Assembly (NCBI GenBank): GCA_963704645.1 | Contig: OY969926.1 | Span: forward strand, 576,001-640,000 | Origin: an uncultured bacterium | GTDB lineage: Bacteria > Patescibacteriota > JACMRA01 | Reading direction: 5' to 3' | Length of the DNA: 64,000 nt | Part shown: positions 22,160 through 62,174 of the stretch, piece by piece | How the letters are laid out: the number at the start of each line of letters is the position of its first letter | Numbering within the stretch: the first letter of the stretch is position 1 | Translations under genes and position numbers: made by a program | The notes under the pieces: generated by a model | Told to the model about the DNA's origin: nothing | What the model saw: the letters and a program-made list of their open reading frames with translations, nothing else | Databases searched by the model: none

Positions 22160-23566
22160 ATGTCTTTGAAGTTAGCTTTAGCTATAGAATCTAGTTGTGA
22201 TGAAACCAGTTTGGCTATATTTTTGTTGCCTGATAATGTTCCAACCAACTTTTTAGAAAGAATAAATTCGTACGTTGTTTTGGGTTCAATTGTTTCTTCT
22301 CAAATAAAAATTCACCAAGAATATGGTGGAGTTATTCCAGAAGTTGGCGCCCGAAGCCATGCCACCCAAATTCACTATTTATGGAATTTAGTTTGGCAAC
22401 AAGCCGTAGAAAAAGCCAGTGCTATTGGAATTAATAATTTGGAAAAAACTAATTTAGAAACTATTTTGGTAACTACAAACCCTGGTTTGGTTTCAGCTTT
22501 GCGGGTAGGGCTAGAGTTTGCAAAGTCTTTAAAGTTCTTTTTAGAATTACAAAATGCCAATGTAAATATAATTCCGGTTAACCATTTGCGTGGTCATGTA
22601 GCTAGCTGCTTTTACAATTTAGATGTTAAAACTTGGCTGCTTTCTTCTTCAGATGGACCTTCTAAAAATAACTTGGAGGGTGTTAAAAACGGGGAGAAGG
22701 TCGGGGTAAATAATACTGGCATTTCAGAGGGTTCAACTACCCCGATGAATTTGTCATCACCCCTTACCAGGGGTATTGGTGATGCTGAGTCTTTGAATGT
22801 TAGAGATGAAGATTTGTTTCCGCATTTGCATTTGTTGGTTTCTGGGGGGAATACACAGTTGTTGTTGCTTAAAAGTTGGAACGATTACGAAATTATTGGT
22901 CAAACTTTAGATGATGCAATTGGTGAAAGTTTAGATAAAATTGGACGAATGGTTGGTTTGCCTTATCCAGCTGGAATTAGTGTTTCTAAAATTGCTGGAT
23001 TAGTCTGCCAAAACCCGCTTAATTTAACTATAGGAATGAAGAATGCCGAGCTTAATTTTTCCTATTCAGGTATGAAAACAGCAGTACGTTATTTAGTTCA
23101 AAGTAAACCGGAATTACTTACATTCGAAGAAAATCTTTCCAAAGAAGATGTGGACTTTTTAATTTCTAGGGCGAATTTAGAGATTGGGGAAACTACTACC
23201 CCGAAACCTTCGGTTTCGCTCTTAGACAGGGGTACTTTATCCTCTGGGTCAATTAATTCGTCCGGATTAAATCTAGCCCAGCCCGAACTTGTTGTTGGGT
23301 CTAAACTTCATTTCATTCAGCAGCTTTGTATTTCTGCTCAGTACGTGGCTATTTCCCAAATTTCCCAAAAATTTAACTTGGCTATAAATTTGCATAGTCC
23401 AAAAAGTGTAGGTGTTTCCGGTGGAGTTTCAGCTAGTTTAATGCTTCGCCAAGAATTAAAAAACATAGCAAAAAAACACCAAATTTCTAACTTGTTTATT
23501 CCACAATTAAGTTTAACAGGCGACAACGCAGTTATGATTGGTCTTGCTGGTTTAGTATCTATTTAG
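22160..23566 (+). CDS. tsaD: tRNA N6-adenosine threonylcarbamoyltransferase with two in-frame insertions
   Basis: AIESSCDETS, GGVIPEVGARSH, NHLRGH, LLVSGGNT, TLDDAIGE, FSYSGMKT, DNAVMIG. Confidence 0.95.
   Translation: MSLKLALAIESSCDETSLAIFLLPDNVPTNFLERINSYVVLGSIVSSQIKIHQEYGGVIPEVGARSHATQIHYLWNLVWQQAVEKASAIGINNLEKTNLETILVTTNPGLVSALRVGLEFAKSLKFFLELQNANVNIIPVNHLRGHVASCFYNLDVKTWLLSSSDGPSKNNLEGVKNGEKVGVNNTGISEGSTTPMNLSSPLTRGIGDAESLNVRDEDLFPHLHLLVSGGNTQLLLLKSWNDYEIIGQTLDDAIGESLDKIGRMVGLPYPAGISVSKIAGLVCQNPLNLTIGMKNAELNFSYSGMKTAVRYLVQSKPELLTFEENLSKEDVDFLISRANLEIGETTTPKPSVSLLDRGTLSSGSINSSGLNLAQPELVVGSKLHFIQQLCISAQYVAISQISQKFNLAINLHSPKSVGVSGGVSASLMLRQELKNIAKKHQISNLFIPQLSLTGDNAVMIGLAGLVSI
22736..22777 (+). 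repeat. 42-nt palindromic element, in frame in tsaD (copy a)
   Basis: ACTACCCC-GATGAATTTGTCATC-ACCCCT-TACC-AGGGGTATT. Confidence 0.85.
23195..23236 (+). repeat. 42-nt palindromic element, in frame in tsaD (copy b)
   Basis: ACTACCCC-GAAACCTTCGGTTTC-GCTCTT-AGAC-AGGGGTACT. Confidence 0.85.
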
Positions 23567-23606
23567 TCTGAGCACAAAAAAAGTAGCGTGTTGCTACTTG
23601 CTAGTT

Positions 23607-23912
23607 TTAATTAATCATTTCCTGATAATACTCTATAGGCATTGTTGGCAATCCAAAATCAATTCTCCTAGATAAAGAACTGGAAATTTGAAGAACAGCA
23701 ATGATAGTAATTTCCCCACTAGTAACTGTTACTACGTTATATTCTTGACCAGGCCAATTGTTGATTTGTTTCAGGTCATCACGGTGAACTAAGCCCAAAT
23801 TGTCTTTACTAACTAAACTTTTAACTGCGGGTGCATGATAATGTTTAGTCTGAACTTTAAACTGTCTTCTTATACTATTTCCTTCATCCAAGACAAAAAT
23901 TACTTGCTTCAT
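23607..23912 (-). CDS. Hypothetical protein
   Basis: ORF filling the gap between tsaD and the Mur ligase. Confidence 0.55.
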   Translation of the reverse strand: MKQVIFVLDEGNSIRRQFKVQTKHYHAPAVKSLVSKDNLGLVHRDDLKQINNWPGQEYNVVTVTSGEITIIAVLQISSSLSRRIDFGLPTMPIEYYQEMIN

Positions 23913-24058
23913 TAATGTTTTCCAAAACTAGTAATTCAGTAATAACAAAAGCCATTATCCTGTCAAAATAAATTTGATTTGCAATAAACCAAACAATTTG
24001 AATTACTAGAAATATACTTTCAAAAGCTGAAATAAGCAGCAAAACCAAACTACCTTCA

Positions 24059-25540
24059 ATGCCTAAAATTCCTTTCCGTACAAAACTATTAATTTGGCTT
24101 GGTGGTAAATTGCTAGAAAAAATTCGCAAAACTTATTATAAGAAATATAACAAAAAATGGCCTATTGTTTTAATTGCTGGAACTGCTGGTAAAAGTTCTA
24201 CTACATTGCTAATTCAAAACCTATTTACCAAGGCTGGCTGGCAAGTTTTCGGAAGTGCTACTAAAACTACCTGCCTCAATTCTTTAACTGGTTTAATTAT
24301 GGTTCTTGGAAGGTTTTTCTTCCAGTTTGAAGGCGGAATGGGTGGTTGGCGCAAGTTTGAATTTTTGGTAGAGGCAGCTTGGACTAGTTTTTTTGGCAAT
24401 TATTCAGATTTACAAGAAAACTCGGTTTTGGTTTTTGAGGTTGGTTTTAACGAACAACACGAAGCCAATTTCTTTACTAAAATTTTTGAAGATAAGGCCA
24501 GTTTTTTGGTTGTTACAAATTTAACTTTAGAACATTCCTTTGGTTTTTCAAACCGTTTAGACACGGCTACACTTTCTAAATTAGAAAACAATTTACCGCC
24601 AGAATTAGTTCAGCTTTTGTTAGACAGTGAAAAAAATAATGCCAGATTAGCCAACACTGCTCTAGAGCAACTGAAGTTAATTAACTGTGCTAAAAACATT
24701 ATGGTTCCAACAACTTTAGGCAGCATTACCAACTCTTGGTTTACTAAAATAGCTGGTAAAAATGAATGGGAAATGCAAAACTTTATTGCTACCAGAAATG
24801 AAAATAGGTTGGAAGTTAACGGCCAATATTTGTTTCCAGCTGAATATTTATTGCCTTTAACTTTTGCTAAAACGGTTGGAATTATTGAAGAAATTAAGCA
24901 ACAATTTAATTTGGAAGTTAATTTACAGGAAGTGCTAGATAGTTTTTCTTTCCCCAACGGAAGATTTAGTTTGCTAGCAGGAATTAACGACACAGTTTTG
25001 GTAGACAGCACTTACAATTCAGATCCGGCAAGTTTAGTAGGTTATTTAGATTTGTTTGAAGAAATTGTTAGTCTGCAAAAAACTACAACTCAACAACATT
25101 TAGTTTTACCAAAGCACAATTTAATTTTAGGCGAAATGAGGGAGATGGGAAAAATTGCTACAACTCAGCACAATTTAATTTTAGATAAAGTTTTAGAAAT
25201 TGGAGCTAAATTTCCAGATAGAATTGAATCTATTCGGCTCATTGGAAAAGAATGGCTGGCTTGCAACCAAGACGATATTGTAAAAGTGGATGGAGACGTT
25301 AGTTTTATTTCTTATTCCAAACATTTATTTAAAGTTTATAATTCAGCAGGTTCAATAATTAAATCTTTACCAGAAGTTACTATTTCACAAGGAAATTGGT
25401 ATTGGCTAAAAGGCAGCCAAAACACTATATTTTTAGAAGGCGTAGTAGAATATTTACTAGAGAATAAGGATGAGGTGGAAACAAAACTGTGCAGACGAGG
25501 CGCAGAGTGGGATCAGATTAGGGCGAAGTGGCTGGTGTAG
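24059..25540 (+). CDS. murF: Mur ligase, MurF-like
   Basis: IAGTAGKSST, GRFSLL.G, DSTYNSDP.S, ILGEMREMG, KGSQ. Confidence 0.8.
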   Translation: MPKIPFRTKLLIWLGGKLLEKIRKTYYKKYNKKWPIVLIAGTAGKSSTTLLIQNLFTKAGWQVFGSATKTTCLNSLTGLIMVLGRFFFQFEGGMGGWRKFEFLVEAAWTSFFGNYSDLQENSVLVFEVGFNEQHEANFFTKIFEDKASFLVVTNLTLEHSFGFSNRLDTATLSKLENNLPPELVQLLLDSEKNNARLANTALEQLKLINCAKNIMVPTTLGSITNSWFTKIAGKNEWEMQNFIATRNENRLEVNGQYLFPAEYLLPLTFAKTVGIIEEIKQQFNLEVNLQEVLDSFSFPNGRFSLLAGINDTVLVDSTYNSDPASLVGYLDLFEEIVSLQKTTTQQHLVLPKHNLILGEMREMGKIATTQHNLILDKVLEIGAKFPDRIESIRLIGKEWLACNQDDIVKVDGDVSFISYSKHLFKVYNSAGSIIKSLPEVTISQGNWYWLKGSQNTIFLEGVVEYLLENKDEVETKLCRRGAEWDQIRAKWLV

Positions 25541-25617
25541 TGGGAGATAATTTTATCAGCTTTGAAATTAGAATTAGCACAAAATAAAACAGGCTTGCTG
25601 GGCCTGTTCGGTTTAGG

Positions 25618-26235
25618 TTAACGATTAATGTTAACCGTGTTTAAGTCTACAATGTCTCCAACTCCTTCCAGCTTGAAAATTGAGTTTTCATCAAGAGGAT
25701 TTATCCAACCGTTGTACCATTCTTCAGCATTGCCTAATACAAGCTCACTGATGCCGTTTGATCTACAGATATCGACTAGCTGCTGGTCGTAATCTTCTTG
25801 CATCATATGCAGTTGTGAATCATCAGCTTGTACAAAAAGTTTCAAACCAGCAATGAAATGTTCAATTCCATTCAATTCTTCAACATTACTGGGTGAATCA
25901 GTTTGTTGCTGATTACACTCTGTGTGCTGTTCAAAGTTTTGAAGAATCTGATCTTTAACAGGAGAAAGAGTTCTCAGATAAGCATTTTTATAGGCCTCGG
26001 GGTCTACATCTTGAAACCAAGTATTAGCATCGGCGACATAAACTTTTGATCCGTCTTTAACTAAAAAGCTGAAATCAGTTGATTTAGGAAGTATTTCTCC
26101 TTTAAGATTCCAGAAAGGGATTCCTGTTTTATCTCGAAATATAATAAGGAGCTGAAACAGATCATTATCAAATTTGGTTTCAATTACTCTCCACGCTGTG
26201 TTTAGACTGTTAATATAGTCAACTAAACTTGTCAC
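25618..26235 (-). CDS. Hypothetical acidic protein
   Basis: 205-aa ORF with GGAG SD before GTG. Confidence 0.65.
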   Translation of the reverse strand: MTSLVDYINSLNTAWRVIETKFDNDLFQLLIIFRDKTGIPFWNLKGEILPKSTDFSFLVKDGSKVYVADANTWFQDVDPEAYKNAYLRTLSPVKDQILQNFEQHTECNQQQTDSPSNVEELNGIEHFIAGLKLFVQADDSQLHMMQEDYDQQLVDICRSNGISELVLGNAEEWYNGWINPLDENSIFKLEGVGDIVDLNTVNINR

Positions 26236-26360
26236 AGTTTTTACTCCACAATAGTTTTTACTTCAAGCTTTTAAGTATTTTCATAAATAATTTGCATAGT
26301 CAACCAATCTTAAAACTAGTATTTAGATAGATTCTAGCCGTTAAATTTTTGTTTTTTAAG

Positions 26361-26390
26361 TTAAACCCCGAAACAAGTTCAAGGTAGCGG
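26361..26390 (+). repeat. Degenerate CCTGAAACAAGTTCAGG-type REP-like element
   Basis: AACCCCGAAACAAGTTCAAGGT resembles the copies at 37379 and 51038. Confidence 0.55.
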
Positions 26391-26662
26391 GTTTAGAGAA
26401 ATAAATGTACCAACTAATAGAGATAATTTATTGGGTTTTGAACATATTTATCCTTATTAAAGCTATCTTAAACTTATCCCTTGACAAAAAAATGTTTTTG
26501 TAATTACTAGTTTGTCAAGCTGTGGATTTGTGCTAAGGCAGTGCTGTAAAAAACAATAACTTCATCATCTTATGGCATCTTTAGTTCTATCTAATTAATA
26601 TTTTATTAATCTCATAATTTTTTAATTTATCAGCTTCAATCTTTTATTGTCGCAAACATCAG

Positions 26663-26683
26663 GGTGGCTTCGGCCACTCTTTG
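26663..26683 (+). terminator. Putative terminator hairpin
   Basis: GGGTGGC-TTCG-GCCACTC-TTT. Confidence 0.55.
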
Positions 26684-26727
26684 ACATGGGCAATTTTCTG
26701 TGCTATTTAAGCTGAAATTATATTTTT

Positions 26728-28182: not shown

Positions 28183-28190
28183 GTTTTGTT

Positions 28191-29405
28191 ATGCGTTTAG
28201 TTTTTTTTGGTTCGTCCAGTTTTGTAATTCCAATTTTGGAAGATATTAAGAACGGTGAGGGTGCTAGCTTATTACAAGTTTTAACTTCTAGGAGAGAAGA
28301 GTTAGGCAAAATTGACCCTTCATATTCAGATATAGTAAAGCAAGTTGAGTCTCTGGCGAATGAAGAAAATCTAGAATTAAGCGATATTAAAGACAAGCTA
28401 AATTCGCCTATAGAATTATTGGGTGTTGTTACCCAAGCAAACACAGAACATAGAGGAAAAATTCAGAAATCCGGTACTGCAATATGGAGTGAGAATAATA
28501 ATGTAAAGTTATTTCAACCTGAAAAATTAAATAAGCAATTTGAAGAATGGCAGACTTTTGTGGAAGAAGGTTTTGATGTTTCTGTTGTGGCTTCTTTTGG
28601 CCAAATAATCAGTCAAAAAGTTTTAGATACAGGGCAGTGGATAAACTGGCACCCTTCCAAGCTACCAGAATACAGAGGTCCTTGCCCCATGCAGCAATGC
28701 CTGGCAGATGGCAGGGTCGAAACAGCCTTAAGTTGGATTAAAATGACGAAAGGTATGGACGCTGGAGAAATTTATGTGCAAGTTCCTGTAAAAACAAATG
28801 GTTCAGATTTTAACCAATTAGCTGAAAGAATGGGTGATTTAGGTAAATTAACTTGGCCTTTGGCTGTTCTTGCTAGTATAATTAATAATACTGAAAATCA
28901 AAGTTCAAATTCAATTTTAAATAGTTTAAAAGCTTTGCTTCAACCAAAAATTCAAAACGAAGACGAAGTTACTTTTACTAAAATGTTAACCAAAGAAGAT
29001 GGAGTAGTTATTCCCAATTCGCAATCGGCCGAGCAAATTTACAACCATTATTTGGCCTATATCCAATATCCAAAAACATATTATTTTAGTAGTTATTTTA
29101 ATGAAATGGTTAGACTGGATGAAGTTGAAGGTTGGGTTCATGGTGGAACTGAAACTAGCCCGACTACCCCGATGGCTTTGCCATCACCCCTAGATAGGGG
29201 TACTCTTAGCCTAGAACTAGAGGTAGTTAATAGTCTTTCTTCAAACTCTACTTCGCAATCCCATCCTCAAAGTTCTGAGTTTCGCAAGATAGATAATAAA
29301 ACTAATTATTTGCTTTTACAATGTGCCAAGCAAACTTTTTTAAAAGTAATTTCCGTAACTTTAAGTAGTGGTAAAAAGGTGTTTTTAAAAGGTTTGGAAT
29401 TATAG
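28191..29405 (+). CDS. fmt: Methionyl-tRNA formyltransferase with insertions
   Basis: MRLVFFGS, VVASFGQII, INWHPSKLPEYRGPCP, GMDAG. Confidence 0.88.
   Translation: MRLVFFGSSSFVIPILEDIKNGEGASLLQVLTSRREELGKIDPSYSDIVKQVESLANEENLELSDIKDKLNSPIELLGVVTQANTEHRGKIQKSGTAIWSENNNVKLFQPEKLNKQFEEWQTFVEEGFDVSVVASFGQIISQKVLDTGQWINWHPSKLPEYRGPCPMQQCLADGRVETALSWIKMTKGMDAGEIYVQVPVKTNGSDFNQLAERMGDLGKLTWPLAVLASIINNTENQSSNSILNSLKALLQPKIQNEDEVTFTKMLTKEDGVVIPNSQSAEQIYNHYLAYIQYPKTYYFSSYFNEMVRLDEVEGWVHGGTETSPTTPMALPSPLDRGTLSLELEVVNSLSSNSTSQSHPQSSEFRKIDNKTNYLLLQCAKQTFLKVISVTLSSGKKVFLKGLEL
29163..29204 (+). repeat. 42-nt palindromic element, in frame in fmt (copy c)
   Basis: ACTACCCC-GATGGCTTTGCCATC-ACCCCT-AGAT-AGGGGTACT. 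Confidence 0.85.
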
Positions 29406-29434
29406 TTGCAAAGAACGGTACACTGTGCTAGAAT
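29406..29434 (+). promoter_or_regulatory. Sigma70 promoter
   Basis: TTGCAA-17-TAGAAT with extended TG; supports the start at 29451. Confidence 0.6.
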
Positions 29435-29450
29435 TGTACTTATTACATAT

Positions 29451-32363
29451 ATGCTTAGCGATTTATACCTTAAGGCCGTCCAAGTTAGCAGTTCTAGCGA
29501 AAATACCCCTGAATTGGCTAATTATTGGCAGTCTAGATACACTAACTTGCTAGAAAAAGATTTATTTAGGGTTAGTTCTAAAACTATAGATCTGGTAAAA
29601 CTAGACGAATTAACAAGACCTGCCACCACATTTGGAGAGCTTGTTTTGGTTAATCATTTAGATAAGAATGGCCAATTAGACGAAGCAGCTTTGCAAACTA
29701 GTATTGAAACTGCAGTGCGTTTTCTAGATGGTTTTTTGGATACATTAAATTTTAATAGTCAGGCCAAAGCCACGGTTGCCACTTACAGAAAAATTGGTCT
29801 TGGAATTGCCGATTTTAAAGAATATTTAAGCAAAAGAAGTAACTCTTCCGAGCTAGATGAAACAGACTATTTAGGAAATTTAATTAGTTCTGCAACTTAC
29901 AGAGCAAGTGAAAGTTTAGCCGAGGAAAAAGGTGTTTGTCATGGTTGGGATAAGGTTAGAAAACATTTACGTCCAAAATCTTTTGAATATTGGTATGACA
30001 TCGAAACCGGAGATGTTAAAAATGGTTTGGAAATGAGTGAAGATTTTTCTGAAGATACAATAATGGCCAGTAGGTACGAAATTGTTCCAAGAAGAAATGT
30101 TAGTTTGTTATTATTTCCACCAGATTTAGAATGGCAAATTTGGAGTGACCGTGATGATACAGCTGCTAAAACTGAAATGGTAAATGTGCCTGAAATTATT
30201 GATAACAAAAATAATCAAAACAGTAATTTGGTTCAGAAAAGTGATTTGAATCAAAACTTAATTCAAAATGAAATTGTTGAGGAAGTAGTTGTTCAACCTG
30301 ACTTAAATTCTGAGGATATCTCTACTTCTACTTCACAAGAAACTGATGAGCTAGAAACACAAGTTGAAATTATTAAGGAAGATCCAATTGCTTCAAACAT
30401 TAGTACAATAGATACTGAACTGTTGCAATTTGGTAACGAACCAGCACACTTTGAAGAGCCAAACCCAGCTTTAACTGAAATGAAAATTCAAGAACGCTTA
30501 GACGCAGTGGAAGATGCTAAGGTTGTAGAATTGCCTGCTTCTTCAGAAAACTTCTTAAAACCAAGTCTAAGTAACTCAGATAGTTCGCCTTTAAATAATG
30601 AACCTCAAACATTGAAAGATGTAAGTGAAGTTAGTGAAATTAAGGAAGATGATGAATCTTTAAAGTTGTTGACAGATGAAGTTGAACCTTTAATTAAGTC
30701 AGATACTAAGCCATTGCTAAACAATACTGCTAAACTAATGTTGGAAGACGAGCCAGAATTATTATTGGAATCTGATTCGAAGTTATTGCTTGAAGATGAA
30801 AAAGAATTATTATTGCAAGATAATGTTGAACCTTTGCTAACCAACACTCCCGGTATTCTTTTAGACGAAAGCAATGATTTAGATGAAAATAAGGAAAATG
30901 TTGAAGAAGAATTAGAAGTTGATAAATTAACAAATATAAGTTATATAGCTCCTGTAAACTTAGATCATTTAAGTAATTTGGATAATCAGGTTGATAGCGA
31001 AGTTGAAGAAGAGTATTCCAAAGAATCTTTTTCTTTTCAAATTGGCGAGTTAGTTCAACTTCCTAAAGAGAAAAATAAAATATACCAAGTTTTAGATGCA
31101 AAAAATGAGGCAGGAATAAACAAGTATCAATTAACCAATGGAAGTGCGGATGCCGTAGATGTTTATATTGCTGAAGATGAAATTGAGCCAGTAGAACTAT
31201 TCGATATTTTAGACCGAATTAATTTGGCTAGTAGTTTAGAAACAAAGTTGAGCGAACAAGATTTATTACTAAACCAATCTTCATCTTTAAACAAAGGCTG
31301 GGAGGTATGGGCATCGGCTTTAATATTAAACAATGGCAAGGCAGCTGTTTCTAAAGACTCGCAAAATTTTCCTTCAGTTCAGGTTGAAACCGATCAACTT
31401 CCAGAAAAGAAATTAATTGCTTATTTGGAAGATCAATATCAATTACACGGACGTATTATTGAGGAGGTAGGCAGCTCTACAACCCAACTTGATGGTGTTT
31501 CTAGACTACATTTAACATATCAAGTACAAGTAAAAGAGAGTGTTTTACCCGCTAGTTTGGTAGAAGTTCAAATTGCAAGTCTGCAAGAGTCTGAAAGTTC
31601 AGCGAGAACAATTTTAAACAAATATAATAGAAGGCAATTATATTGGCAGAATCAAATAGATAAAGCCAAGAAAAGCGCCCAAGTTATTCCAAACGTTGTA
31701 AATTCTAAAGCTGATAACACTAGTAATTTAAGCGCTTCTAACATAAACCCAACTATATCAGTTGAACCAACACCATCAAACATTCATTTTAACACCCCAA
31801 CAATTCAAATTAACCCTAACAATATGGCTAAATATTCCCTTAAACTAGAACAATTAGTACAAACCCAAGCTTTTGGCGATGTAACAGTAACAATTCAATA
31901 TGATCCTGAAGGTCCTAAAGTAGTTATGGCTACAGGACAAGCAGTTGTAGGTGAATTAAAACACCTACTAGACACTGTTTTAGGTTTAGTAAACTTCACT
32001 TTAAGCAAGAAAATTGCTCCTGTGGAAATTTCTGAACAATTGCAAAATCAACCTAAAGATGGTATGAACATGCCAATTAATGATTTACTACTAATCATCG
32101 CTCAGGCTTTGAAAACTGCTCCAGCTAGTGCCGAACAAATTAATAGTAATATTTTAACTGAAATTGTTCCTGAAAAAATTATGCAGGCTATCACTGAAAA
32201 AGCCGAAGATAAGGCTCCACAATCTAATCCAAAGTCAAACGGCGTTGAACAACCTGCACCTTCCGAAAAACCTGCAGGAAACGATGAAAATAAGGCTTCC
32301 AATGACAAAAAAGAAGAACCTAAAAATGTCTTCTTCGGTGGCTTCGGTGGAAGAAAAGAATAG
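29451..32363 (+). CDS. Degenerate class II ribonucleotide reductase-like multidomain protein
   Basis: AVRFLD, RKIGLGI, YRASESLAEEKG and RRN barrel remnants; acidic linker; SH3-like, NUDIX-like and TSCPD-like segments. Confidence 0.65.
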   Translation: MLSDLYLKAVQVSSSSENTPELANYWQSRYTNLLEKDLFRVSSKTIDLVKLDELTRPATTFGELVLVNHLDKNGQLDEAALQTSIETAVRFLDGFLDTLNFNSQAKATVATYRKIGLGIADFKEYLSKRSNSSELDETDYLGNLISSATYRASESLAEEKGVCHGWDKVRKHLRPKSFEYWYDIETGDVKNGLEMSEDFSEDTIMASRYEIVPRRNVSLLLFPPDLEWQIWSDRDDTAAKTEMVNVPEIIDNKNNQNSNLVQKSDLNQNLIQNEIVEEVVVQPDLNSEDISTSTSQETDELETQVEIIKEDPIASNISTIDTELLQFGNEPAHFEEPNPALTEMKIQERLDAVEDAKVVELPASSENFLKPSLSNSDSSPLNNEPQTLKDVSEVSEIKEDDESLKLLTDEVEPLIKSDTKPLLNNTAKLMLEDEPELLLESDSKLLLEDEKELLLQDNVEPLLTNTPGILLDESNDLDENKENVEEELEVDKLTNISYIAPVNLDHLSNLDNQVDSEVEEEYSKESFSFQIGELVQLPKEKNKIYQVLDAKNEAGINKYQLTNGSADAVDVYIAEDEIEPVELFDILDRINLASSLETKLSEQDLLLNQSSSLNKGWEVWASALILNNGKAAVSKDSQNFPSVQVETDQLPEKKLIAYLEDQYQLHGRIIEEVGSSTTQLDGVSRLHLTYQVQVKESVLPASLVEVQIASLQESESSARTILNKYNRRQLYWQNQIDKAKKSAQVIPNVVNSKADNTSNLSASNINPTISVEPTPSNIHFNTPTIQINPNNMAKYSLKLEQLVQTQAFGDVTVTIQYDPEGPKVVMATGQAVVGELKHLLDTVLGLVNFTLSKKIAPVEISEQLQNQPKDGMNMPINDLLLIIAQALKTAPASAEQINSNILTEIVPEKIMQAITEKAEDKAPQSNPKSNGVEQPAPSEKPAGNDENKASNDKKEEPKNVFFGGFGGRKE

Positions 32364-43922: not shown

Positions 43923-43924
43923 CC

Positions 43925-52779: not shown

Positions 52780-54738
52780 ATGAATCAAAAATCATCTTCA
52801 AGTAGTGACAGTAATAGTAACAATTCTAAATTTGGAAATAAATTTAGTTTAAATAAATTTTTAAAATCTAAAAAAGGACAATATTCTTTATTCTCTTTAT
52901 TAACCCTTTCTGTATTATTAATATCTGGATTATTTACTTTCTCTTTATTACAAAATACTGACACAGCATTAGCTGCTTTAAATTGTCCTGCTGGTTCTTC
53001 TTCAAATGGAAGTCAATGTATCTCTAATACTCCTAGTAGCTACACTTGTCCTGCTGGATATCCTTTTAATAACAATAATGGAACATGTGGAAGGGATGTT
53101 CTTCTTAAAAAATACCTAGTTTTAAAAACATATGGAAATGTACTTCCTTCTGCTAACGATCCTTGTGTAGTAGCAGTTGATCCACGTTTAATTTATATGA
53201 GTGAAACACCAGAAAGTGCATTTGATTCAGCTAGAAATTGTGCAACCACAATTAGCTTTGATGTTACGTCTGCAGCTTTTTTACAAGTTAATTCTTATAA
53301 TTATATTTTGCCGGGTGCAAATGAACCTTGTGCAATGGTATTAGATAGTAGGGTGACATACTTAACTAATGGAAATGCGCCAGCAAGTGGTGGATGTGCT
53401 TCAACAGTATTAGATTTATCTCAAAATTATATAGTTTTCAAATCCTACAACATAATAAATCAGGGAGCAAATGAACCCTGCGCTGCAGTACCTACACCCT
53501 CTATAATGTATGTAAGTTCTGCGCCTGAAAATTTTATGAACGGTTGTGGCGGTGGACAAGGTGGCAATTCAGTGTCTGTTAATTTGAAAGAATTTACCCG
53601 AATTAATGATGGAACAGCTACCCCAGTCTACGGAACAGCAGTAACCCCAACTTCCTACACTGTTGAAGATGTTAACGTTTCAACAGGTACTTGCACTTCC
53701 AATTTAGGAACTAACACAGTAGTAATAGGTCAAACTATGAATTGTACTTTCCCTCTTACGGGTAGCCCAGCTGGAGTACCATACATCCTACCACCTGAAG
53801 GTTTGTATGCAGGATTATGGGATACCCCGACTAATTCTAATAGCTTCTTAGGTAATAGTGGGCTATGTACTATCTCGGCTAATAGCATGACTTGCAACAA
53901 TGTACCTACTACTGGCGGTACCCCAGGCCCAGCTGAATTAGTTATTCACAGGCCAGGAGTTGCTTGGTATCCTAATAAGGGAAGTATTGAGTTAGTTGCC
54001 TCTTCCTCCCCCCTAACAACAGCAGACATCCCTTCCCTTACAGTAACATGTGGAGTAGGAGGAACTCCTGGAACAGTAAGAGTAAACACTACAACAACTT
54101 GTACCTTCACTCTTCCTACAAACAAAACATTACCAAATAACTTCAAACTAGGAATAGGAAATGCAACCCCTGCAGGAACTTGTACTGTAGGAGCAAACAA
54201 TCTTGTAACTTGTATTAATGTACCAACAGGAACACTTCTTGGAACACAACCTATCAACGGACAAATTGGAACTGAAACAATAACACCTACAGGAGAAACA
54301 GTAAATGTAATAGATTCACTATGTTCCACAACTAACCCATGTGCCCTATTCGAAACAGCACTAACCTACAGTCCAACCCAAGCCCTAGCCAAAAGATATG
54401 GAGCTTCTGGTTCTACAAACTCAGATAACCTAATACTAACTCTAAAAGATACAAGATTAGAACAATCTGGATTTACTACAACATGTTCCATAAAATATAA
54501 ATTCAGAACAGATACAAGCTACAGAATATTAACAACAAACTCTACATACAATAATACTACAGGATGTACAGGAAACCTTCTTAAAGCAAATCAACTATTA
54601 TTCAATGTAGACTTTGAAATAACTGCAATAACAACAAATACAACTACAAACACTACAAAGAACTATCTAATCTATTCCAACTACGATTTCAAAGCTGGTT
54701 CTATTGGAGTTACTTCTATTGGTGGAAGTGGGTTGTAA
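52780..54738 (+). CDS. Modular secreted Cys/Thr-rich surface protein A
   Basis: KSKKG-hydrophobic-TALA signal; threefold 2-Cys repeat; two C-x-F-x-L-P beta domains; C-terminus shared with protein B. Confidence 0.8.
   Translation: MNQKSSSSSDSNSNNSKFGNKFSLNKFLKSKKGQYSLFSLLTLSVLLISGLFTFSLLQNTDTALAALNCPAGSSSNGSQCISNTPSSYTCPAGYPFNNNNGTCGRDVLLKKYLVLKTYGNVLPSANDPCVVAVDPRLIYMSETPESAFDSARNCATTISFDVTSAAFLQVNSYNYILPGANEPCAMVLDSRVTYLTNGNAPASGGCASTVLDLSQNYIVFKSYNIINQGANEPCAAVPTPSIMYVSSAPENFMNGCGGGQGGNSVSVNLKEFTRINDGTATPVYGTAVTPTSYTVEDVNVSTGTCTSNLGTNTVVIGQTMNCTFPLTGSPAGVPYILPPEGLYAGLWDTPTNSNSFLGNSGLCTISANSMTCNNVPTTGGTPGPAELVIHRPGVAWYPNKGSIELVASSSPLTTADIPSLTVTCGVGGTPGTVRVNTTTTCTFTLPTNKTLPNNFKLGIGNATPAGTCTVGANNLVTCINVPTGTLLGTQPINGQIGTETITPTGETVNVIDSLCSTTNPCALFETALTYSPTQALAKRYGASGSTNSDNLILTLKDTRLEQSGFTTTCSIKYKFRTDTSYRILTTNSTYNNTTGCTGNLLKANQLLFNVDFEITAITTNTTTNTTKNYLIYSNYDFKAGSIGVTSIGGSGL
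54335..54738 (+). repeat. 404-bp direct repeat (constant C-terminal domain), copy 1
   Basis: Matches 61599-62002; only three differences noticed, all in the last ~55 bp. Confidence 0.95.
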
Positions 54739-55981: not shown

Positions 55982-56428
55982 GTGAACAAATTAACATTAA
56001 TATTTAAACAAAGTTGGTTCTGGCAAAGTTTAATTTTAAGCTGCGTTATACTTTTAAACGTTTTACTTTCTTTCGCGGTTAGAAACTTAGGTTTATATTA
56101 TATTCCAAACCAACAACCTTTTGGTTTTAGTTTAGGTATTTTTTCTTCTGCTATAATATTATTATTTGTAAGCTGGGGTGTTTTTGCTTTAAAGTTGTTC
56201 GAAAAATCGCCAGTATTTAGTTTGTTAATACTAGGTGGGGCATGGAGCAACTTTATTGAAAGAATAATTTTTGGTTCGGCAACAGATTATATTATATTTT
56301 TCTTCAGTTACATTAATTTAGCTGATATTCAAATTTGGTTAGGCTTAATTTTATTAAATATACAAATGTGGTTCGGCAAGCAAGTGCAAGTTGTTAAATC
56401 CACTGAAAAAGATAAAATACCGGAATAA
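55982..56428 (+). CDS. lspA: Lipoprotein signal peptidase II
   Basis: N...FG, GGAWSNFIER, DY, NLAD. Confidence 0.75.
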   Translation: MNKLTLIFKQSWFWQSLILSCVILLNVLLSFAVRNLGLYYIPNQQPFGFSLGIFSSAIILLFVSWGVFALKLFEKSPVFSLLILGGAWSNFIERIIFGSATDYIIFFFSYINLADIQIWLGLILLNIQMWFGKQVQVVKSTEKDKIPE

Positions 56429-56481
56429 CTAATTTCTAATTGCTAGCTTATAAAAAGTAGGGTATAATTAGTGTGTAATAT

Positions 56482-57720
56482 ATGCAGAGTGGTCAAAAGA
56501 TTAGTTCAGAATGGCAAAATGTATTAGATAATTATTTAAATTTAGATGAAAGCTGGAAAAAGGAAATCTTTTTAAAAAGCATGAGTTCTAAACAAAAAGA
56601 TTATTTATTACAAATTGTGCAAGATGCTATAGATAGTAAAATGGCAGAAAATCTTGTTCCTACAAAAAATATTTATAGCCACACCAGCCCTAGTTTCCAA
56701 CAAAATGTTTCTAATATAAATTTACATCCCAACGGTTCTAATAGTTTACAGTATTTAGCATCAAATAAAGATGAACATTTACTAAGTCACAAAGATTATA
56801 AAACTAGTAAAAGAAAGTGGTGGGCTACACTGTTACCTGTTTTTTTAATTGCTACGGTAATTAGTGGCCTTTCGGGTTTAGTTTTTTTTGCTTGGATAGG
56901 CGGTGGAATTCCAAAATTATCTTTCCTAAACAATATACCTGGAAATAAGGCTAAGGCGGATGAAATTACTTATGTGCAGTGGATAGAACAATTCGATACA
57001 ATAAAAGATACACGCGAAACACTAGATTTTGATGCAGACGGAATAAGTAATTTTGAAGAATTCCAGTTAGGGCTGAACCCTGTAAAGTTTGATGAAAACA
57101 ACAATTCTACAGTTGATGGACTAGACTATATTAATAAAGATATCTCTTTACTAAAAAATGTTGGTGAGCAGTCAAAAATGTGGCAACTGGTTGAAAGTCA
57201 AAGTATTTTTCTAAGACTTCAAAAAGCAACTTTATTAAAATTGGGGTTGCAAAATTCTGGAGAGAGTTTGTTGAAATTAACTAAAATTGTTATTCCAAAA
57301 CTGGATAATTTAGAAGTTTTAGCTTTACCTGAAAATACAGATTTACAAGATTCCTCTAGTACTTTAAAAAAGCAGGCAGCCTTAGTTCATTACTTAGGTA
57401 CAAATTGGGCAGGTGAAAATTTAAGTGTTTGGTTTAGTAATCAAGGTAAAATTGAACAAATGATGCCAGGTGATAAAATGGAAGCATACTTGCAAGACGA
57501 CCAAGAAAATAGCTGGTATCAAATTTATCAACTGCAAGCTGCAAATTCTTTTAGTGCAGACAGCCAAGATATATTTAAAAATGAAAGTAATATTCCTAAT
57601 TTAAAAATTGTTTTATGCCAGCCAGAAAATGGTTGTAACAAAGCTTTAGTTCTAACTTTTGAAATTAAAGAAACTAAACAAATTACCTTTGATAACCAAA
57701 TTAGCTCGCTAGAGTTTTAA
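56482..57720 (+). CDS. Membrane protein with Ca-binding (thrombospondin-3-like) repeat and degenerate sortase-like domain
   Basis: TM; DFDADGISNFEE..LGLNP..FDENNN..VDG; IVIPKL...VHY.GT..G...LKIVLC. Confidence 0.5.
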   Translation: MQSGQKISSEWQNVLDNYLNLDESWKKEIFLKSMSSKQKDYLLQIVQDAIDSKMAENLVPTKNIYSHTSPSFQQNVSNINLHPNGSNSLQYLASNKDEHLLSHKDYKTSKRKWWATLLPVFLIATVISGLSGLVFFAWIGGGIPKLSFLNNIPGNKAKADEITYVQWIEQFDTIKDTRETLDFDADGISNFEEFQLGLNPVKFDENNNSTVDGLDYINKDISLLKNVGEQSKMWQLVESQSIFLRLQKATLLKLGLQNSGESLLKLTKIVIPKLDNLEVLALPENTDLQDSSSTLKKQAALVHYLGTNWAGENLSVWFSNQGKIEQMMPGDKMEAYLQDDQENSWYQIYQLQAANSFSADSQDIFKNESNIPNLKIVLCQPENGCNKALVLTFEIKETKQITFDNQISSLEF

Positions 57721-57746
57721 AAATTTCAATAAAATCAAACAGGTTT

Positions 57747-57775
57747 TTGCCCAAACCAAAAAAACAAAATACACT
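57747..57775 (+). promoter_or_regulatory. Promoter of modular surface protein B
   Basis: TTGCCC-AAACCAAAAAAACAAAA-TACACT. Confidence 0.6.
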
Positions 57776-57861
57776 ACAACACATAAGCAGAAATTCCATT
57801 CTGTCTGTAGTTTAAAGTATATTAAAAATTAATGGTGTAACCATTAAAAACAAAACAAATT

Positions 57862-57883
57862 GTAGAGGCGAGCCTGTCTCGCC
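57862..57883 (+). repeat. GTAG-type REP palindrome in the leader
   Basis: GTAG-A-GGCGAG-cctgt-CTCGCC. Confidence 0.6.
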
Positions 57884-57937
57884 ATTAAACGTTAAAATCA
57901 GGAATAACAAATTCCAAAAAAACAAAAACTAAAAATT

Positions 57938-60900
57938 ATGTCCAAACCAGGTCAAATTAATAATTCTAAAATAAAAAAAGAAGAATCTAAATTAGATAAC
58001 TCTAAATCAAATCTATCTAATACAGATAACCATCAAATAGTTAAAAATACTAAACCTACTATAGCACAGTTCCTCCAATCTAAAAAAGGAAAATATTCTT
58101 TAATCTCTCTTCTAGTTCTTTCTGTACTTCTTATCTCAGGATTATTTACATATAACCTATTAAAACAAGATTCTGATACAGCCAAAGCAGCAAATACAAC
58201 AGCAACAGCTTTTAACCCTTCAGACTGTGCAACTTATGCATCTAATGGAGGAACAAATACAGCAGGAGTATGTTTTGTAAAAATGTATGAAAAGAACGGA
58301 CAATTATATAGAAGTTTAGATATTGCTCCAGGAGAATTAGTTAATGTAAGAAACTATTATAATAATACAACCACAGCATCTGTAACAGCAGCTAACATTA
58401 CAGATAGTATGCCAGCCAACTTCACAAGAGTAGGAGCAGTAACAAATAGTTATGTAGATGCAACTCCTGTAACCTTAAACAATAATGTATTTACAGGACA
58501 GAACCTTTCAGTTGCTCCAGGTGCTGGTTACTTTGGTTATGCTGCAGACAATACTCTTACTTCTTCTAATTTGGAGTTGGGGAAGAAGAGGTATCTAGAC
58601 TTCATTAGATGTACTTTGCTTACAGGAAGTGGTGGTAACACAATTAGCCCATTACCTTTTACAAATACAAACAACAACGGCGTTGCAACTACTCAAGCTG
58701 AGTGTGATTCAACTATTGGTTGGAGTTCCATACCTTCCCTTAATAGCGGTAGTTACAAAGGAATAGATACATTAGGGAAAAGATATGCCGACTTTTTACG
58801 ATGCCAGGCTACATATGCAGGAAGTACTGGAAATATTGTTCAATTACTTAGTTACACCAATACAGATAATAACGGTGTTGCAACTACTCAGGCTCAATGC
58901 GATGGTAGTATTGGTTGGAGTTCAGTACCAGCAAGTAACTCAGGTAGTCTTAAAGGCTTTGATTCCTTAGGTAAAAGATATTTTGATTATCACAGATGTT
59001 TAAGTTCTGGAGGTGGAATAATTGTTAGCCCTGTTGGCTATACAAATACAAACAACAACGGTGTTGCCACAACCCAAGCCGAGTGTGACTCAACTATTGG
59101 TTGGAATTCTACCCCAGCAAACAACTCTGGAAGTCTTAAAGGCTTTGATACCCTAGACACCACCAGAGGCTACGGCTACATCTCATACTCCATGCAAGCT
59201 CCAACAACAGGACTTACCAACGGACAACAGGTTGGCACAACGGGGACTCTAACAGCATCAGGAGCTAAAACATCAGGAACAGCATCTTCTTTAACAATAA
59301 CCAACGTATCCACTCCAAACATAACCTACACAAAACTATACTCTGTAGACGGAGGAAGTACATGGAGCCCTACAGTATCTGCTAATCCAGGACAAAGTGT
59401 TCTAGTAAGATTATGGAATGAAAACACAGGAGGATTATCTTCAACAAGTGCTAACATTAAAGACAGCCTTCCAAATACATTTACCTATGTAGCAGGATCT
59501 GCTAAAAACTGTTTAAATCCAAGTACTACAACAATTACTTCTCCAGATAACACAGAACTAGTTTGTGATAGTGGAACTTCTACTCAGAAAGATTCTTTAT
59601 TCTCTACTCTTACAAATGCCAGTGGAGTTTCTCCAAGTGCAGGACTTTATGATGCTGCTGGAACTACTGTTGCTTCTGGTGGAACTGCTTTTAATGCCAT
59701 ATCAGGAACTAAGGATATTGGGAAGATGAGGTATGTTCAACAACAAGTTTGTAATTATGTAAGAACCACCGAGCAAGCAGTAGTGTTTGATAGAATTCTT
59801 ATTCAAGCGAATAATATTCCAAACTTTACGGTAACCCCAGTAACTACTCTTTGCCCACTTACTAACACCAACCCAAGCTATCAATTAGGCACAATTCAAG
59901 GAGATTCAGCAGTAAATACTGTAGATACATTGGGTGATAGATATTCTCACCAGCAAGTTTGTAACTATATAAGACAATCTGATCAGGCCGTAGTGTTTGA
60001 TAGATATTTAGTTCAAGCAAATAACAATCCTATTCTTTCAATTACTCCAGTAACTACACTTTGCCCACTTACTAACACCAACCCAAGTTACCAATTAGGT
60101 AGTGTGCCTGGAGATTCATCTATCAATACAATTGACACGCTAGGTGACAGATATGTTCACCAACAAGTTTGTAATTATGTAAGAACTAGTGACCAAGCTG
60201 TACTGTTTGATAGAATACTTATTGAAGCAAATAATAATCCAAACTTCACAGTAACCCCAGTAACTACTCTTTGCCCATTTACCAATACCAACCCAAGTTA
60301 TCAATTAGTAGACTCAGCCATCAATACAGTTGATACCCTAGACGCCACCCGCTCCAAATCATACATCCAATACGAAATGATTATCCCAGCAGGAACAGCA
60401 GGAGGAAACTATGGAACACAATCTACAATAGCTTCTACAGCAACAACCCCAGAATTTACATCAGTAAACAGTGGAACTAATGGAAGTGGAATTACAGTTG
60501 CAGGAGATCCAGCCTTTAGTGTAAAGAAACTTCTTGCTTTACCAACTTCAGGAACAGGAGCAAGTGCAGTATGTCCAACATCTACTTCAAGCTACTCAAC
60601 AACATTATCTAATACACCAGCAGGTTCTACAGTATGTGTAAGACTAGCTTACCAGAATAAAACTAGTGGAGCAGTAAGTAATGCTAGAATAAGGGATGAA
60701 ATTAATAATTCCCCAAGTGGCTTTACCCGAGTAGCAGGATCAACTCTTAACTGTTTAACTCCAGCTACAGGAAGTGAAATATGTAATACCTCTGCAGGTA
60801 TGGGAGGAGCTATTGATGAAAATTCTGTTTGGGTTACTAGAGTAGCTGATCCAGCTCCGGGACAAGGTGGAGGTAGTACCGATAATCAACTAGATATTAC

Positions 60901-62002
60901 ACCACATGCAGGCTTTTACGGAATCTCTTCTAATTCAATTACAGGTGTTATGGAAATGGGTAAAAAAAGATATGCAGACAGAATCAGCTGTGTAGCTTTA
61001 TCTGGAAGTGCACAAGAAACATATATCCAAAAATTCTCCAACTTAAATTCAACTAGCCCAGATGGTGATTGTGGAGGGCCAAGTAATGTTGCTTCAATAA
61101 CTCAAATTGATACTTTTGCACAAAGGTACGCCCATAGAATTAGTTGTACTGCTTACAGCGGTGATGCTCAAGAAGTGTACATCCAAAGATACGTTAATAC
61201 TACAACAATAAACAATGGTGGCGATTGTACTCCAACCGGTGTGGCATCTATAATTGCCATTGATACACTTGGTTTAAGATATGCTCACAGAGTAAGCTGT
61301 AATGCTTTAGCTGGTAAACCTCAAGAATTGTACATTCAATTGTTCTCTAACATTCTAACAACAAACAATGGTGGCGATTGTTCAACTGCTGGCGTAGCAT
61401 CTATTAATGTATTTGACCTCCTAGACCCAGCCAACGGAACAGGCTACATCCAATACAAGATGTTAACCCCAACCAATCCAACAAGCACTAGTATTACATT
61501 ACCAAACGTAACCCTAGCAGGAGACAACCAAACAACATCAACTTCACCTGCTACAATTAACTTTACAAATATTCCAGAAGTAGGATGCTCAACCACAGAC
61601 CCATGTGCCCTATTCGAAACAGCACTAACCTACAGTCCAACCCAAGCCCTAGCCAAAAGATATGGAGCTTCTGGTTCTACAAACTCAGATAACCTAATAC
61701 TAACTCTAAAAGATACAAGATTAGAACAATCTGGATTTACTACAACATGTTCCATAAAATATAAATTCAGAACAGATACAAGCTACAGAATATTAACAAC
61801 AAACTCTACATACAATAATACTACAGGATGTACAGGAAACCTTCTTAAAGCAAATCAACTATTATTCAATGTAGACTTTGAAATAACTGCAATAACAACA
61901 AATACAACTACAAACACTACAAAGAACTATCTAATCTATTCCAACTATGATTTCAAAGCTGGTTCTATTGGAGTTACGTCTATTGGTGGAAGTGGGTTGT
62001 AG
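57938..62002 (+). CDS. Modular secreted surface protein B: three DUF11-like scaffolds, each with a threefold 2-Cys repeat insert
   Basis: Same signal region as protein A; three PG..V.VR..N...A.I.D..P..F..V domains; GKxRY-(repeat)x3-LD...YI.Y.M; shared C-terminus. Confidence 0.82.
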   Translation: MSKPGQINNSKIKKEESKLDNSKSNLSNTDNHQIVKNTKPTIAQFLQSKKGKYSLISLLVLSVLLISGLFTYNLLKQDSDTAKAANTTATAFNPSDCATYASNGGTNTAGVCFVKMYEKNGQLYRSLDIAPGELVNVRNYYNNTTTASVTAANITDSMPANFTRVGAVTNSYVDATPVTLNNNVFTGQNLSVAPGAGYFGYAADNTLTSSNLELGKKRYLDFIRCTLLTGSGGNTISPLPFTNTNNNGVATTQAECDSTIGWSSIPSLNSGSYKGIDTLGKRYADFLRCQATYAGSTGNIVQLLSYTNTDNNGVATTQAQCDGSIGWSSVPASNSGSLKGFDSLGKRYFDYHRCLSSGGGIIVSPVGYTNTNNNGVATTQAECDSTIGWNSTPANNSGSLKGFDTLDTTRGYGYISYSMQAPTTGLTNGQQVGTTGTLTASGAKTSGTASSLTITNVSTPNITYTKLYSVDGGSTWSPTVSANPGQSVLVRLWNENTGGLSSTSANIKDSLPNTFTYVAGSAKNCLNPSTTTITSPDNTELVCDSGTSTQKDSLFSTLTNASGVSPSAGLYDAAGTTVASGGTAFNAISGTKDIGKMRYVQQQVCNYVRTTEQAVVFDRILIQANNIPNFTVTPVTTLCPLTNTNPSYQLGTIQGDSAVNTVDTLGDRYSHQQVCNYIRQSDQAVVFDRYLVQANNNPILSITPVTTLCPLTNTNPSYQLGSVPGDSSINTIDTLGDRYVHQQVCNYVRTSDQAVLFDRILIEANNNPNFTVTPVTTLCPFTNTNPSYQLVDSAINTVDTLDATRSKSYIQYEMIIPAGTAGGNYGTQSTIASTATTPEFTSVNSGTNGSGITVAGDPAFSVKKLLALPTSGTGASAVCPTSTSSYSTTLSNTPAGSTVCVRLAYQNKTSGAVSNARIRDEINNSPSGFTRVAGSTLNCLTPATGSEICNTSAGMGGAIDENSVWVTRVADPAPGQGGGSTDNQLDITPHAGFYGISSNSITGVMEMGKKRYADRISCVALSGSAQETYIQKFSNLNSTSPDGDCGGPSNVASITQIDTFAQRYAHRISCTAYSGDAQEVYIQRYVNTTTINNGGDCTPTGVASIIAIDTLGLRYAHRVSCNALAGKPQELYIQLFSNILTTNNGGDCSTAGVASINVFDLLDPANGTGYIQYKMLTPTNPTSTSITLPNVTLAGDNQTTSTSPATINFTNIPEVGCSTTDPCALFETALTYSPTQALAKRYGASGSTNSDNLILTLKDTRLEQSGFTTTCSIKYKFRTDTSYRILTTNSTYNNTTGCTGNLLKANQLLFNVDFEITAITTNTTTNTTKNYLIYSNYDFKAGSIGVTSIGGSGL
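61599..62002 (+). repeat. 404-bp direct repeat, copy 2
   Basis: Offset 7264 bp from copy 1. Confidence 0.95.
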
Positions 62003-62031
62003 GGGTTAATCATTGAAATTCACAACACTCT

Positions 62032-62056
62032 GTAGGGGAGATATTTACTATCTCCC
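62032..62056 (+). repeat. GTAG-type REP palindrome
   Basis: GTAG-GGGAGATA-tttac-TATCTCCC. Confidence 0.65.
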
Positions 62057-62132
62057 GGGGTAAACGAAGGGAAATGGAGAAGAAACTACGAACCGTAACT
62101 TCCTCGTTTCCTCAAACTCCACGCGCACCCAA

Positions 62133-62174
62133 ACTACCCCCAAGCCTTTGGCTTGACCCCTTACCAGGGGTACT
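62133..62174 (+). repeat. 42-nt palindromic element, intergenic (copy d)
   Basis: ACTACCCC-CAAGCCTTTGGCTTG-ACCCCT-TACC-AGGGGTACT. Confidence 0.85.

Follow-up and report, generated by a model that had tools for sequence, protein, structure and literature searches.

GTAG REPs are palindromes of 20-40 bp that form dimers and clusters, lie in some cases in frame within genes and are linked to a nuclease gene, RAYT (Di Nocera et al. 2013, PMC3733652). A second pairing joins the Ssn nucleases (GIY-YIG, cd10448) to the NTS/SRM hairpin repeats, for which mobility was inferred (Chenal et al. 2025, PMC11893778). Insertion in frame is already known for REPs and for the Rickettsia palindromic elements (RPEs) (PMC3733652, PMC3767692, PMC10969869). 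Here we describe a 42-nt palindromic element on contig OY969926.1 of an uncultured bacterium (Bacteria; Patescibacteriota; JACMRA01), in a stretch of 64,000 nt (positions 576,001 to 640,000 of the forward strand) that we call the window. By analogy, our best reading is that the element works like the RAYT-REP and Ssn-SRM pairs and is tolerated like the Rickettsia RPEs. It is probably a REP-like selfish repeat whose cognate enzyme is a small stand-alone DUF559 nuclease (Vsr-like, of the PD-(D/E)XK type), presumably encoded elsewhere in the genome, and the arrangement of repeat and nuclease gene in related genomes suggests that this enzyme would cleave and mobilise it.

The window carries four copies of the element, all on the forward strand and at the positions that a sequence-only reading of this DNA had given. 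The element pattern matches four times, compared to a mean of 0.00 in shuffled sequence, and none of 100 shuffles reached four. Three copies lie in frame 0 of open reading frames (ORFs), two in 22148-23566 (TsaD) and one in 28191-29405 (Fmt). The copies, their host genes and the insertions around them are as follows.

22736..22777, + strand: element copy 1, G..C subtype, in frame in loop 1 of TsaD (TTPMNLSSPLTRGI); covariance model, 60.1 bits
23195..23236, + strand: element copy 2, G..C subtype, in frame in loop 2 of TsaD (TTPKPSVSLLDRGT); 55.7 bits
29163..29204, + strand: element copy 3, G..C subtype, in frame in Fmt (TTPMALPSPLDRGT); 65.5 bits
62133..62174, + strand: element copy 4, C..G subtype, intergenic; 69.4 bits
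22148..23566, + strand: host gene tsaD, 468 aa from the ATG at 22160; domain and homologue matches
22625..22792, + strand: TsaD loop-1 insertion, bounds approximate, predicted disordered; homologue loop lengths and AlphaFold model
23174..23287, + strand: TsaD loop-2 insertion, bounds approximate, partly predicted disordered; homologue loop lengths and AlphaFold model
28191..29405, + strand: host gene fmt, 404 aa, against 364-366 aa in five of the six closest homologues
29127..29234, + strand: Fmt insertion of 36 codons, bounds approximate; empty site in the orthologue of locus L004, alignment at 52% identity

Neither a score scan nor the unfiltered covariance model found a fifth copy on either strand of the window, and the next match of the model, at 17 bits, was the reverse strand of the copy at 29163. 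Directly 5' of that copy lies a 9-nt degenerate repeat of the element's 5' end (29154-29162). The copies differ in detail: copy 1 has a single mismatch in hairpin 1, hairpin 2 of copy 2 has decayed and now holds three G-T pairs, and copy 4 has a TGA in the forward frame that the three coding copies use.

The element consists of a 5' tail (RCTACCCC), a 6-bp hairpin 1 with a C-TTY-G triloop, a hairpin 2 of the form ACCCCT-N4-AGGGGT and a short tail, and it has an internal ACCCC direct repeat. For covariation we aligned 23 copies without gaps, four from the window and 19 from related genomes. The proposed covariation of the hairpin arms was upheld for hairpin 1, in which 46 cells had both sides changed, a value that none of 500 shuffles equalled and that compares with 0-2 in slid controls; the structure was derived from the aligned copies themselves, which favours hairpin 1 over the slid controls, but the two-sided changes still hold. 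Hairpin 2 was 100% paired, with one-sided changes only and four G-T cells, and was otherwise invariant, so that it gives no covariation. Overall, pairing was 99% intact. It had also been proposed that the 3' GGGGTA can pair in two ways. Two hairpins were indeed favoured in three window copies, by 1.8-2.4 kcal/mol on the + strand with both RNA and DNA parameters, and end-to-end pairing was favoured in the decayed copy at 23195. Because folding energies were about equal on the two strands, folding cannot tell whether RNA or DNA is the working form. The reverse-strand loop, C-GAA-G or C-AAA-G, is presumably an unusually stable DNA triloop, which is a hint only.

Rfam covariance models gave no match in the window at the gathering score and nothing at E<=1 for the element in loci L018 and L006. 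A search of the window with ARAGORN gave neither tRNA nor tmRNA. Among phages nothing matched the element DNA (E<=1), and among plasmids there were just two partial matches (E 0.5-2). Its ends are complementary over 6 bp only, compared to the terminal inverted repeats of 15-30 bp, with target-site duplication, that define miniature inverted-repeat transposable elements. No matching flank duplication was seen in copies compared without a close empty/filled pair; the 5' triplet is ACT or GCT and the 3' triplet varies. A 3-bp ACT target duplication was considered and rejected, as many copies begin with GCT and end otherwise. The window copies do not form a CRISPR array, being spaced 459, 5968 and 32970 nt apart.

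The sequence-only reading had placed the coding copies within longer insertions in TsaD and Fmt, and alignment with relatives agrees: the insertions are in frame and lie in loops that are short in most orthologues. Among 120 TsaD homologues, loop 1 has 9-18 aa in most of those that could be measured, compared to 68 aa here, and loop 2 has 30-39 aa, compared to 70 aa. The motif TTP..S.L.RG occurs in eight of these 120, up to three times each, and among 58 Fmt homologues only in the window's own. The TsaD inserts sit at the breaks between three blocks that align to solved TsaD structures. In the AlphaFold model the core has a mean confidence (pLDDT) of 85.6. Values fall below 50 in two stretches, residues 156-207 and 350-368; the first contains element peptide 1 (193-206) and the second most of peptide 2 (346-359). 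All three coding copies are in predicted-disordered loops, two in TsaD and one in Fmt. TsaD keeps the invariant columns of its family. Its core, compared to the L004 orthologue, in which both inserts are also present, had 0.12 nonsynonymous (dN) and 1.06 synonymous (dS) substitutions per site, a dN/dS of about 0.11, so the gene remains under purifying selection with the inserts in place. This ratio and the structure prediction suggest that the insert peptides are translated and retained in the protein. The comparison with RPEs that had been drawn stands as far as in-frame insertion into functional genes is concerned, but not for size: the element is far from the 100-150 bp of those repeats. 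The loop-2 insertion of TsaD ends in a QPELVVG peptide, which may be a relic of another palindromic family.

The element belongs to a dispersed family, as had been supposed. In a single exact-pattern scan of GTDB, the pattern occurred in three of 185,579 genomes, with 24 distinct copies in 20 loci (16 in JBILXY, three in JAYUIW and one in JAYUNN); the pattern was strict, so these counts are minimum values. Around tsaD-fmt, JBILXY shares synteny with the window, with protein identities of 52-76%. This metagenome-assembled genome is labelled Bdellovibrionales and the named homologues of the window proteins are Patescibacteria; the label may be wrong, and the host likely belongs to the candidate phyla radiation. 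A covariance-model scan gave 66 matches in 29 loci. We kept 38 at 39.7 bits or more, which with the window copies make 42, and excluded 28 weaker ones (partial copies, a sister family and reverse half-hits). These 42 copies in four genomes comprise 22 intergenic ones, one upstream of a NusA domain being counted here, 11 forward in genes and nine reverse in genes. More than half of the copies thus lie outside genes, and a preference for essential genes would be speculative. The host genes include those for TsaD, Fmt, ValS (three copies, both orientations), PolA, ArgS, NifS, RsmE, a PriA-like protein, a DNA methyltransferase and RNase HII (start uncertain). Two copies, at L011:14577-14667 and L020:460-550, have related 49-nt insertions within the hairpin-2 loop.

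The common strand and frame of the coding copies had been pointed out. It is true of the three in the window, but it is not a rule of the family, which has entered genes in both orientations and uses four of the six frames. Even in the window it carries little weight, because three, three and two of the six frames are open in the coding copies and they would share a frame by chance about once in nine cases, by simple arithmetic. Strand bias within genes was absent (11 forward vs nine reverse, p=0.82). The forward copies are all in frame 0 and the reverse copies occupy three frames, two of these as 43-nt variants. Variants of 43 and 46 nt also lie inside genes, and a role for the length of 14 codons is not supported. 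A mechanism with a fixed frame or a fixed strand is ruled out by the same observations of both orientations and four frames.

Most of the strand and frame pattern is accounted for by stop codons. In the 28 canonical copies, reverse frame 1 is always open, reverse frame 2 never, and forward frame 0 in 14 cases. The last figure reflects two subtypes, whose first pair gives TCA when it is G..C and TGA when it is C..G. The 42-nt copies that are open in frame 0 lie in genes in 12 cases and outside in two, and the closed ones in genes in five cases (all reverse) and outside in 14 (Fisher p=0.001, with copies that are not independent); none of the 19 with a stop in forward frame 0 is forward in a gene. 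A mild preference for frame 0 is left at four independent sites where another forward frame is open (estimated p about 0.03), and it may reflect a tolerance of peptides rich in T, P, S and G over aromatic ones. Recoding of TGA, which would reopen the C..G subtype, was considered. Five of five ORFs that end in TGA, among them a RAYT gene with an end of normal length, reach another stop within 1-18 codons, and we therefore took TGA to be a stop. As a stop of ORFs of at least 200 aa, TGA is rare (1 of 36 in the window and 2 of 132 in the JBILXY loci).

A linked RAYT, DUF559 or GIY-YIG nuclease had been suggested as something to look for, and DUF559 is the one that was found with the element. Pfam was run on 150 of the 152 listed small proteins of the fetched loci, and two of the 150, from L018 and L012, had DUF559 (PF04480), with 90.5 and 101.2 bits against a cut-off of 20.6. 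Both genes hold a tail-to-tail pair of elements in their 5' coding region. The order in each is a short MGxLxxFKR leader, a forward copy of the G..C subtype, a spacer, a reverse copy of the C..G subtype and then the nuclease domain, with a single open frame running through all of them. The only exact match in JAYUNN is in one of these two genes. A homologue search returned 861 proteins, the best 120 of which we examined. The nearest, P0179-P0201, have MGxLxxFK and both the forward and the reverse element peptide, with clade-specific variants. In a quick tree of the nuclease domain, 16 of 114 rows were flagged for an element peptide, and all of these fell in one clade of 25 rows (SH-aLRT 95). 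The nine unflagged members of this clade are three proteins with variant peptides and six short ones that lack the long N-terminal extension; seven of 121 rows, including P0179, were left out of the tree because the domain pattern missed them. The extension, of 60-110 aa, is built from the repeat and predicted to be disordered. The nuclease itself appears intact, its D124, E135, D137 and H141 (the D, E-x-D and H columns) being invariant in 22 sequences, and its predicted fold matches 3hrl (E=2e-6) and the catalytic domain of I-Bth0305I (E=2e-3).

Hairpins are also found near more distant DUF559 genes. We chose ten plasmid loci for taxonomic spread from 35 DUF559 records found by protein similarity, and in all ten a C-rich hairpin lay no more than about 200 nt from the gene, compared to 0-3 of 30 trials with shuffled sequence; flanks beyond 300 nt had no such hairpin in nine of ten. 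The rule for a C-rich hairpin was drafted after inspection of the plasmid flanks, and these counts are descriptive. Two of the loci (L027 and L028) have a similar layout of a tail and two hairpins, and C-rich hairpins flank the DUF559 genes of three cyanobacterial plasmids. The element's own covariance model, R1, matched none of the ten loci, and the plasmid hairpins are therefore other families.

Several points weigh against DUF559 as the cognate enzyme. The window has no DUF559 gene (best E=0.11), and none of the best 120 of the 861 DUF559 homologues is on its contig of 1,272,640 nt; JAYUIW has three copies, with no DUF559 in the 37 kb seen. The loci were fetched by element match, so that DUF559 genes near the element were ascertained, and the protein query contained element peptides, which raised the rank of homologues bearing them. 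The lineage is permissive to several repeat families, which weakens any claim specific to one, and many of its genes have received repeats, so that the nuclease gene could be a passive victim. PD-(D/E)XK nucleases have no strand-transfer chemistry of their own. Another DUF559 protein, VsrA of Caulobacter, is proposed to act as a nuclease of mismatch repair (PMC12907096).

The element might instead be spread by another enzyme, such as a resident RAYT (an HUH transposase), or by host recombination between repeats, with the DUF559 gene as cargo or as a tolerant site. This would supply the joining chemistry that HUH enzymes have and DUF559 lacks, and JBILXY does have a RAYT gene, at L020:10656-11258, which Pfam missed and NCBIfam found below its cut-off. 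In the fetched loci the element brackets PIN-domain toxin-antitoxin-like pairs (L019:10474-11630 and L018:7751-8697), and the pair in L019 is flanked, like a cargo module, by two near-identical composites of a GTAG REP and the element. However, the RAYT gene is flanked by GTAG REPs only and holds only these within its own ORF, an arrangement that mirrors the DUF559 gene with its internal element pair. No element copy was found within 700 nt of it, the nearest being 726 nt away inside rsmE, and the hairpins of the element are not preceded by a 5' GTAG tag. In addition, the pair stays at one position throughout a DUF559 clade, and C-rich hairpins are near all ten distant DUF559 genes. We consider it unlikely that RAYT or another such agent spreads the element.

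The way in which copies accumulate also bears on the DUF559 nuclease as the probable enzyme. In all four complete dimers a left G..C arm is paired with a right C..G arm, and three of the four have a common spacer start, TT(G)AGTGAA. This combination is the one that keeps the nuclease ORF open, and dispersed dimers repeat the polarity and the subtypes of the pair in the nuclease gene. We infer from these arrangements that both dispersed subtypes descend from a gene-borne dimer. Copies also stack head-to-tail at existing ones. At six of 18 chosen sites (L003, L006, L008, L013, L020 and L004 10505), a copy with a clearly different hairpin lies directly 5' of a full copy; five of these are truncated (28-31 nt) and one is full. 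Other inspected sites carry heads of 8-18 nt upstream of a full copy, and stacked fragments are also present in related TsaD proteins. Since the adjoining hairpins are clearly different, local slippage alone is insufficient, and the donor must differ from the resident copy, with a junction at the 5' tail. Next to one hairpin variant, the flank GGTGATG is found in both TsaD and ValS, which shows that flanks can be carried along. Copies at the same site of TsaD are 38/42 and 35/42 identical between genomes and thus far more alike than the synonymous sites, which differ at 57%. These observations fit nick-and-copy repair aimed at existing copies, and they also fit the replacement of the 3' part of an old copy by a new one.

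We suggest the following course of events. The nuclease would recognise the element in its folded form, probably when the DNA is single-stranded or extruded, and would nick at or just 5' of its tail. Host repair synthesis would then fill the break by copying a donor element, wholly or in part. Neither a dedicated transposase nor a target-site duplication would be involved, and new copies would land in either orientation. Those surviving would be the ones that keep a frame open in tolerant surface loops, the rest being purged, and the survivors within genes would be translated as disordered peptides rich in T, P, S and G.

Another view is that DUF559 is an ordinary nuclease of very-short-patch T:G mismatch repair and that the repeats arise from slippage or template switching at runs of C and G. 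JGI labels these proteins as very-short-patch-repair endonucleases, and the element has the internal ACCCC repeat and several upstream partials of 8-18 nt that are one to three bases off the adjacent copy. VsrA of Caulobacter combines a DUF559 domain with a genetic link to a cytosine methyltransferase (PMC12907096). Here, however, no cytosine methyltransferase flanks either DUF559 gene; the neighbours are ThrRS, the small chain of ribonucleotide reductase and two unnamed ORFs. Vsr itself (1cw0) is a weak structural match (E=0.59), behind 3hrl and the homing endonuclease domain. The hairpins of neighbouring copies frequently differ, and copies that are nearly identical are found at unlinked sites and in separate genomes. 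This view is in our opinion very improbable.

Alternatively, the element may be useful to the host, which would keep it as a terminator, as a hairpin for mRNA stability or as a substrate through which a domesticated nuclease controls incoming single-stranded DNA; the coding copies would then be by-products. Such a role would agree with the nearly complete pairing, with the terminator-like score of hairpin 2 and the following T-run in the copy at 62133, and with the fewer T in the 9 nt after hairpin 2 of forward copies in genes than in the other copies (p=0.006, for copies that are not independent). SsnA of Neisseria modulates transformation (PMC11893778). Against this, copies of the element occupy genes in either orientation and also form arrays that are stacked and truncated, and its distribution is patchy, with exact matches limited to the three GTDB genomes and the Fmt site filled in one of 58 homologues. 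We therefore find a host function distinctly unlikely. It concerns maintenance, and is compatible with spread by the DUF559 nuclease.

Compared to the described systems, the element shares with Ssn-SRM a small single-domain nuclease gene and a dispersed, oriented hairpin repeat of 20-50 nt with a conserved unpaired tail. However, the nuclease is DUF559 and not GIY-YIG, and the element has two hairpins and sits as a dimer within the nuclease ORF. Twenty of its 42 copies are intragenic, compared to 2% for NTS in N. meningitidis (PMC11893778). The published SRM pattern (the CGTC REP/SRM/RPE-4,6,7 type, with a GTCA-type 5' tag) had no match in the window and 19 loci, and no GIY-YIG Pfam match was found in 54 window proteins or in the small locus proteins scanned. 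With GTAG REPs the element shares the palindrome, dimers, clusters, some in-frame intragenic copies and linkage to a nuclease gene. It differs in that it begins with RCTACCCC, without a GTAG or CGTC tag, and has two stems instead of a single stem-loop, and in that the RAYT encoded in the same genome goes with repeats of another kind. REP dimers are known as REPINs. The cyanobacterial small dispersed repeats (Elhai et al. 2008) are reportedly very short mobile repeats as well, some of them in frame in genes.

Rickettsia RPEs are likewise inserted in frame in housekeeping genes of a small-genome bacterium, and different repeat groups occur near the same site in orthologues (PMC3767692, PMC10969869). 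The element is shorter (42-46 nt) than RPE-1/2/3 (100-150 bp) and has another host and apparently another sequence; it also lacks a single conserved peptide frame and has a candidate nuclease linked to it. DUF559/Vsr-like endonucleases (PF04480; 3hrl; VsrA, PMC12907096) have the same domain, and the conserved residues are intact here. The enzyme of the element differs in its repeat-built N-terminal extension and in being linked to a repeat and not to a methyltransferase. In the literature searched, which lacked most subscription papers as well as Figure 1 and the supplements of PMC3733652 and the supplements of PMC11893778 (these may list related repeats), neither a pairing of DUF559 with a repeat nor such elements of Patescibacteria were found.

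Other repeats are present around the element. One shares the intergenic region of copy 4.

62032..62056, + strand: GTAG-type REP of a different family, 77 nt upstream of copy 4; repeat scan

Together with this one, the GTAG-type REPs of the window are at 8864, 57862, 62032 and 63894 on the + strand and at 9335 on the - strand, the last inside an ORF of 1077 aa (9079-12312), and the JBILXY loci have about 30 more, several of them in genes. A third, intergenic family with a ACCCTGAAACAAGTTCAGGGT core, at 26365, 37386 and 51045, does not match the published SRM pattern; on the reverse strand it is what we take to be CGTC-like. A sister element with the same two-hairpin layout, of the ACACCCCGTC...CCACCCCTCAAGAGGGGAAT type, occurs at L006:1836, L011:4936 and L015:10773 and matches reverse-frame peptides in distant TsaD homologues. 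These homologues have other palindrome-like peptides in loop 1, among them NSPLEGWQAKPDG, which agrees with the reverse strand of the sister element seen in L006, L011 and L015. A profile search with a 48-aa tandem element peptide, which is too short for the purpose, returned two proteins, a tandem-repeat ORF and an apparent translated CRISPR array. The repeat of the latter (P0301) reads FQSPLSRGTTPD and resembles the 3' half of the element peptide, possibly by coincidence.

Some genes of the window also stand out. The ORF at 29406-32363 (985 aa) has only a partial match to a ribonucleotide reductase barrel, and its L004 orthologue has 820 aa. Two large unannotated ORFs (52780-54738 and 57938-62002) have a common block of 300 nt at 98% identity and tandem units of 210 nt. 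Two duplicated ORFs lie near 12.3-13.7 kb (12302-13668). The unannotated opposite-strand ORFs at 23607-23912 and 25618-26235 are absent from the syntenic region of L004, and the second adjoins a CGTC-like repeat.

The element is real, and its link to the nuclease is concrete and cheap to test; the argument from the reading frame is weak. The spread of very short palindromic repeats, and the way in which they add to protein sequence, is still largely an open question. This family offers a candidate enzyme of 180 residues and a substrate of 42 nt, so that the question can be tested by oligonucleotide cleavage. We tentatively go further and propose that stand-alone DUF559 proteins, commonly annotated as enzymes of very-short-patch repair, could join RAYT (HUH) and Ssn (GIY-YIG) as a third class of nucleases associated with repeats, each protein recognising and spreading its own C-rich hairpin; this extension we hold with some doubt. 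In the present family, a master dimer in the frame of the nuclease would keep both arms translatable, and would thereby pre-adapt the repeat to grow new disordered segments in housekeeping proteins. If DUF559 does cut the element, a large and widespread domain of unknown function would be reassigned, possibly with a new set of small site-specific nucleases. The family also points to a small-genome lineage in which disordered inserts, derived from at least three types of repeat, continue to be added to housekeeping proteins.

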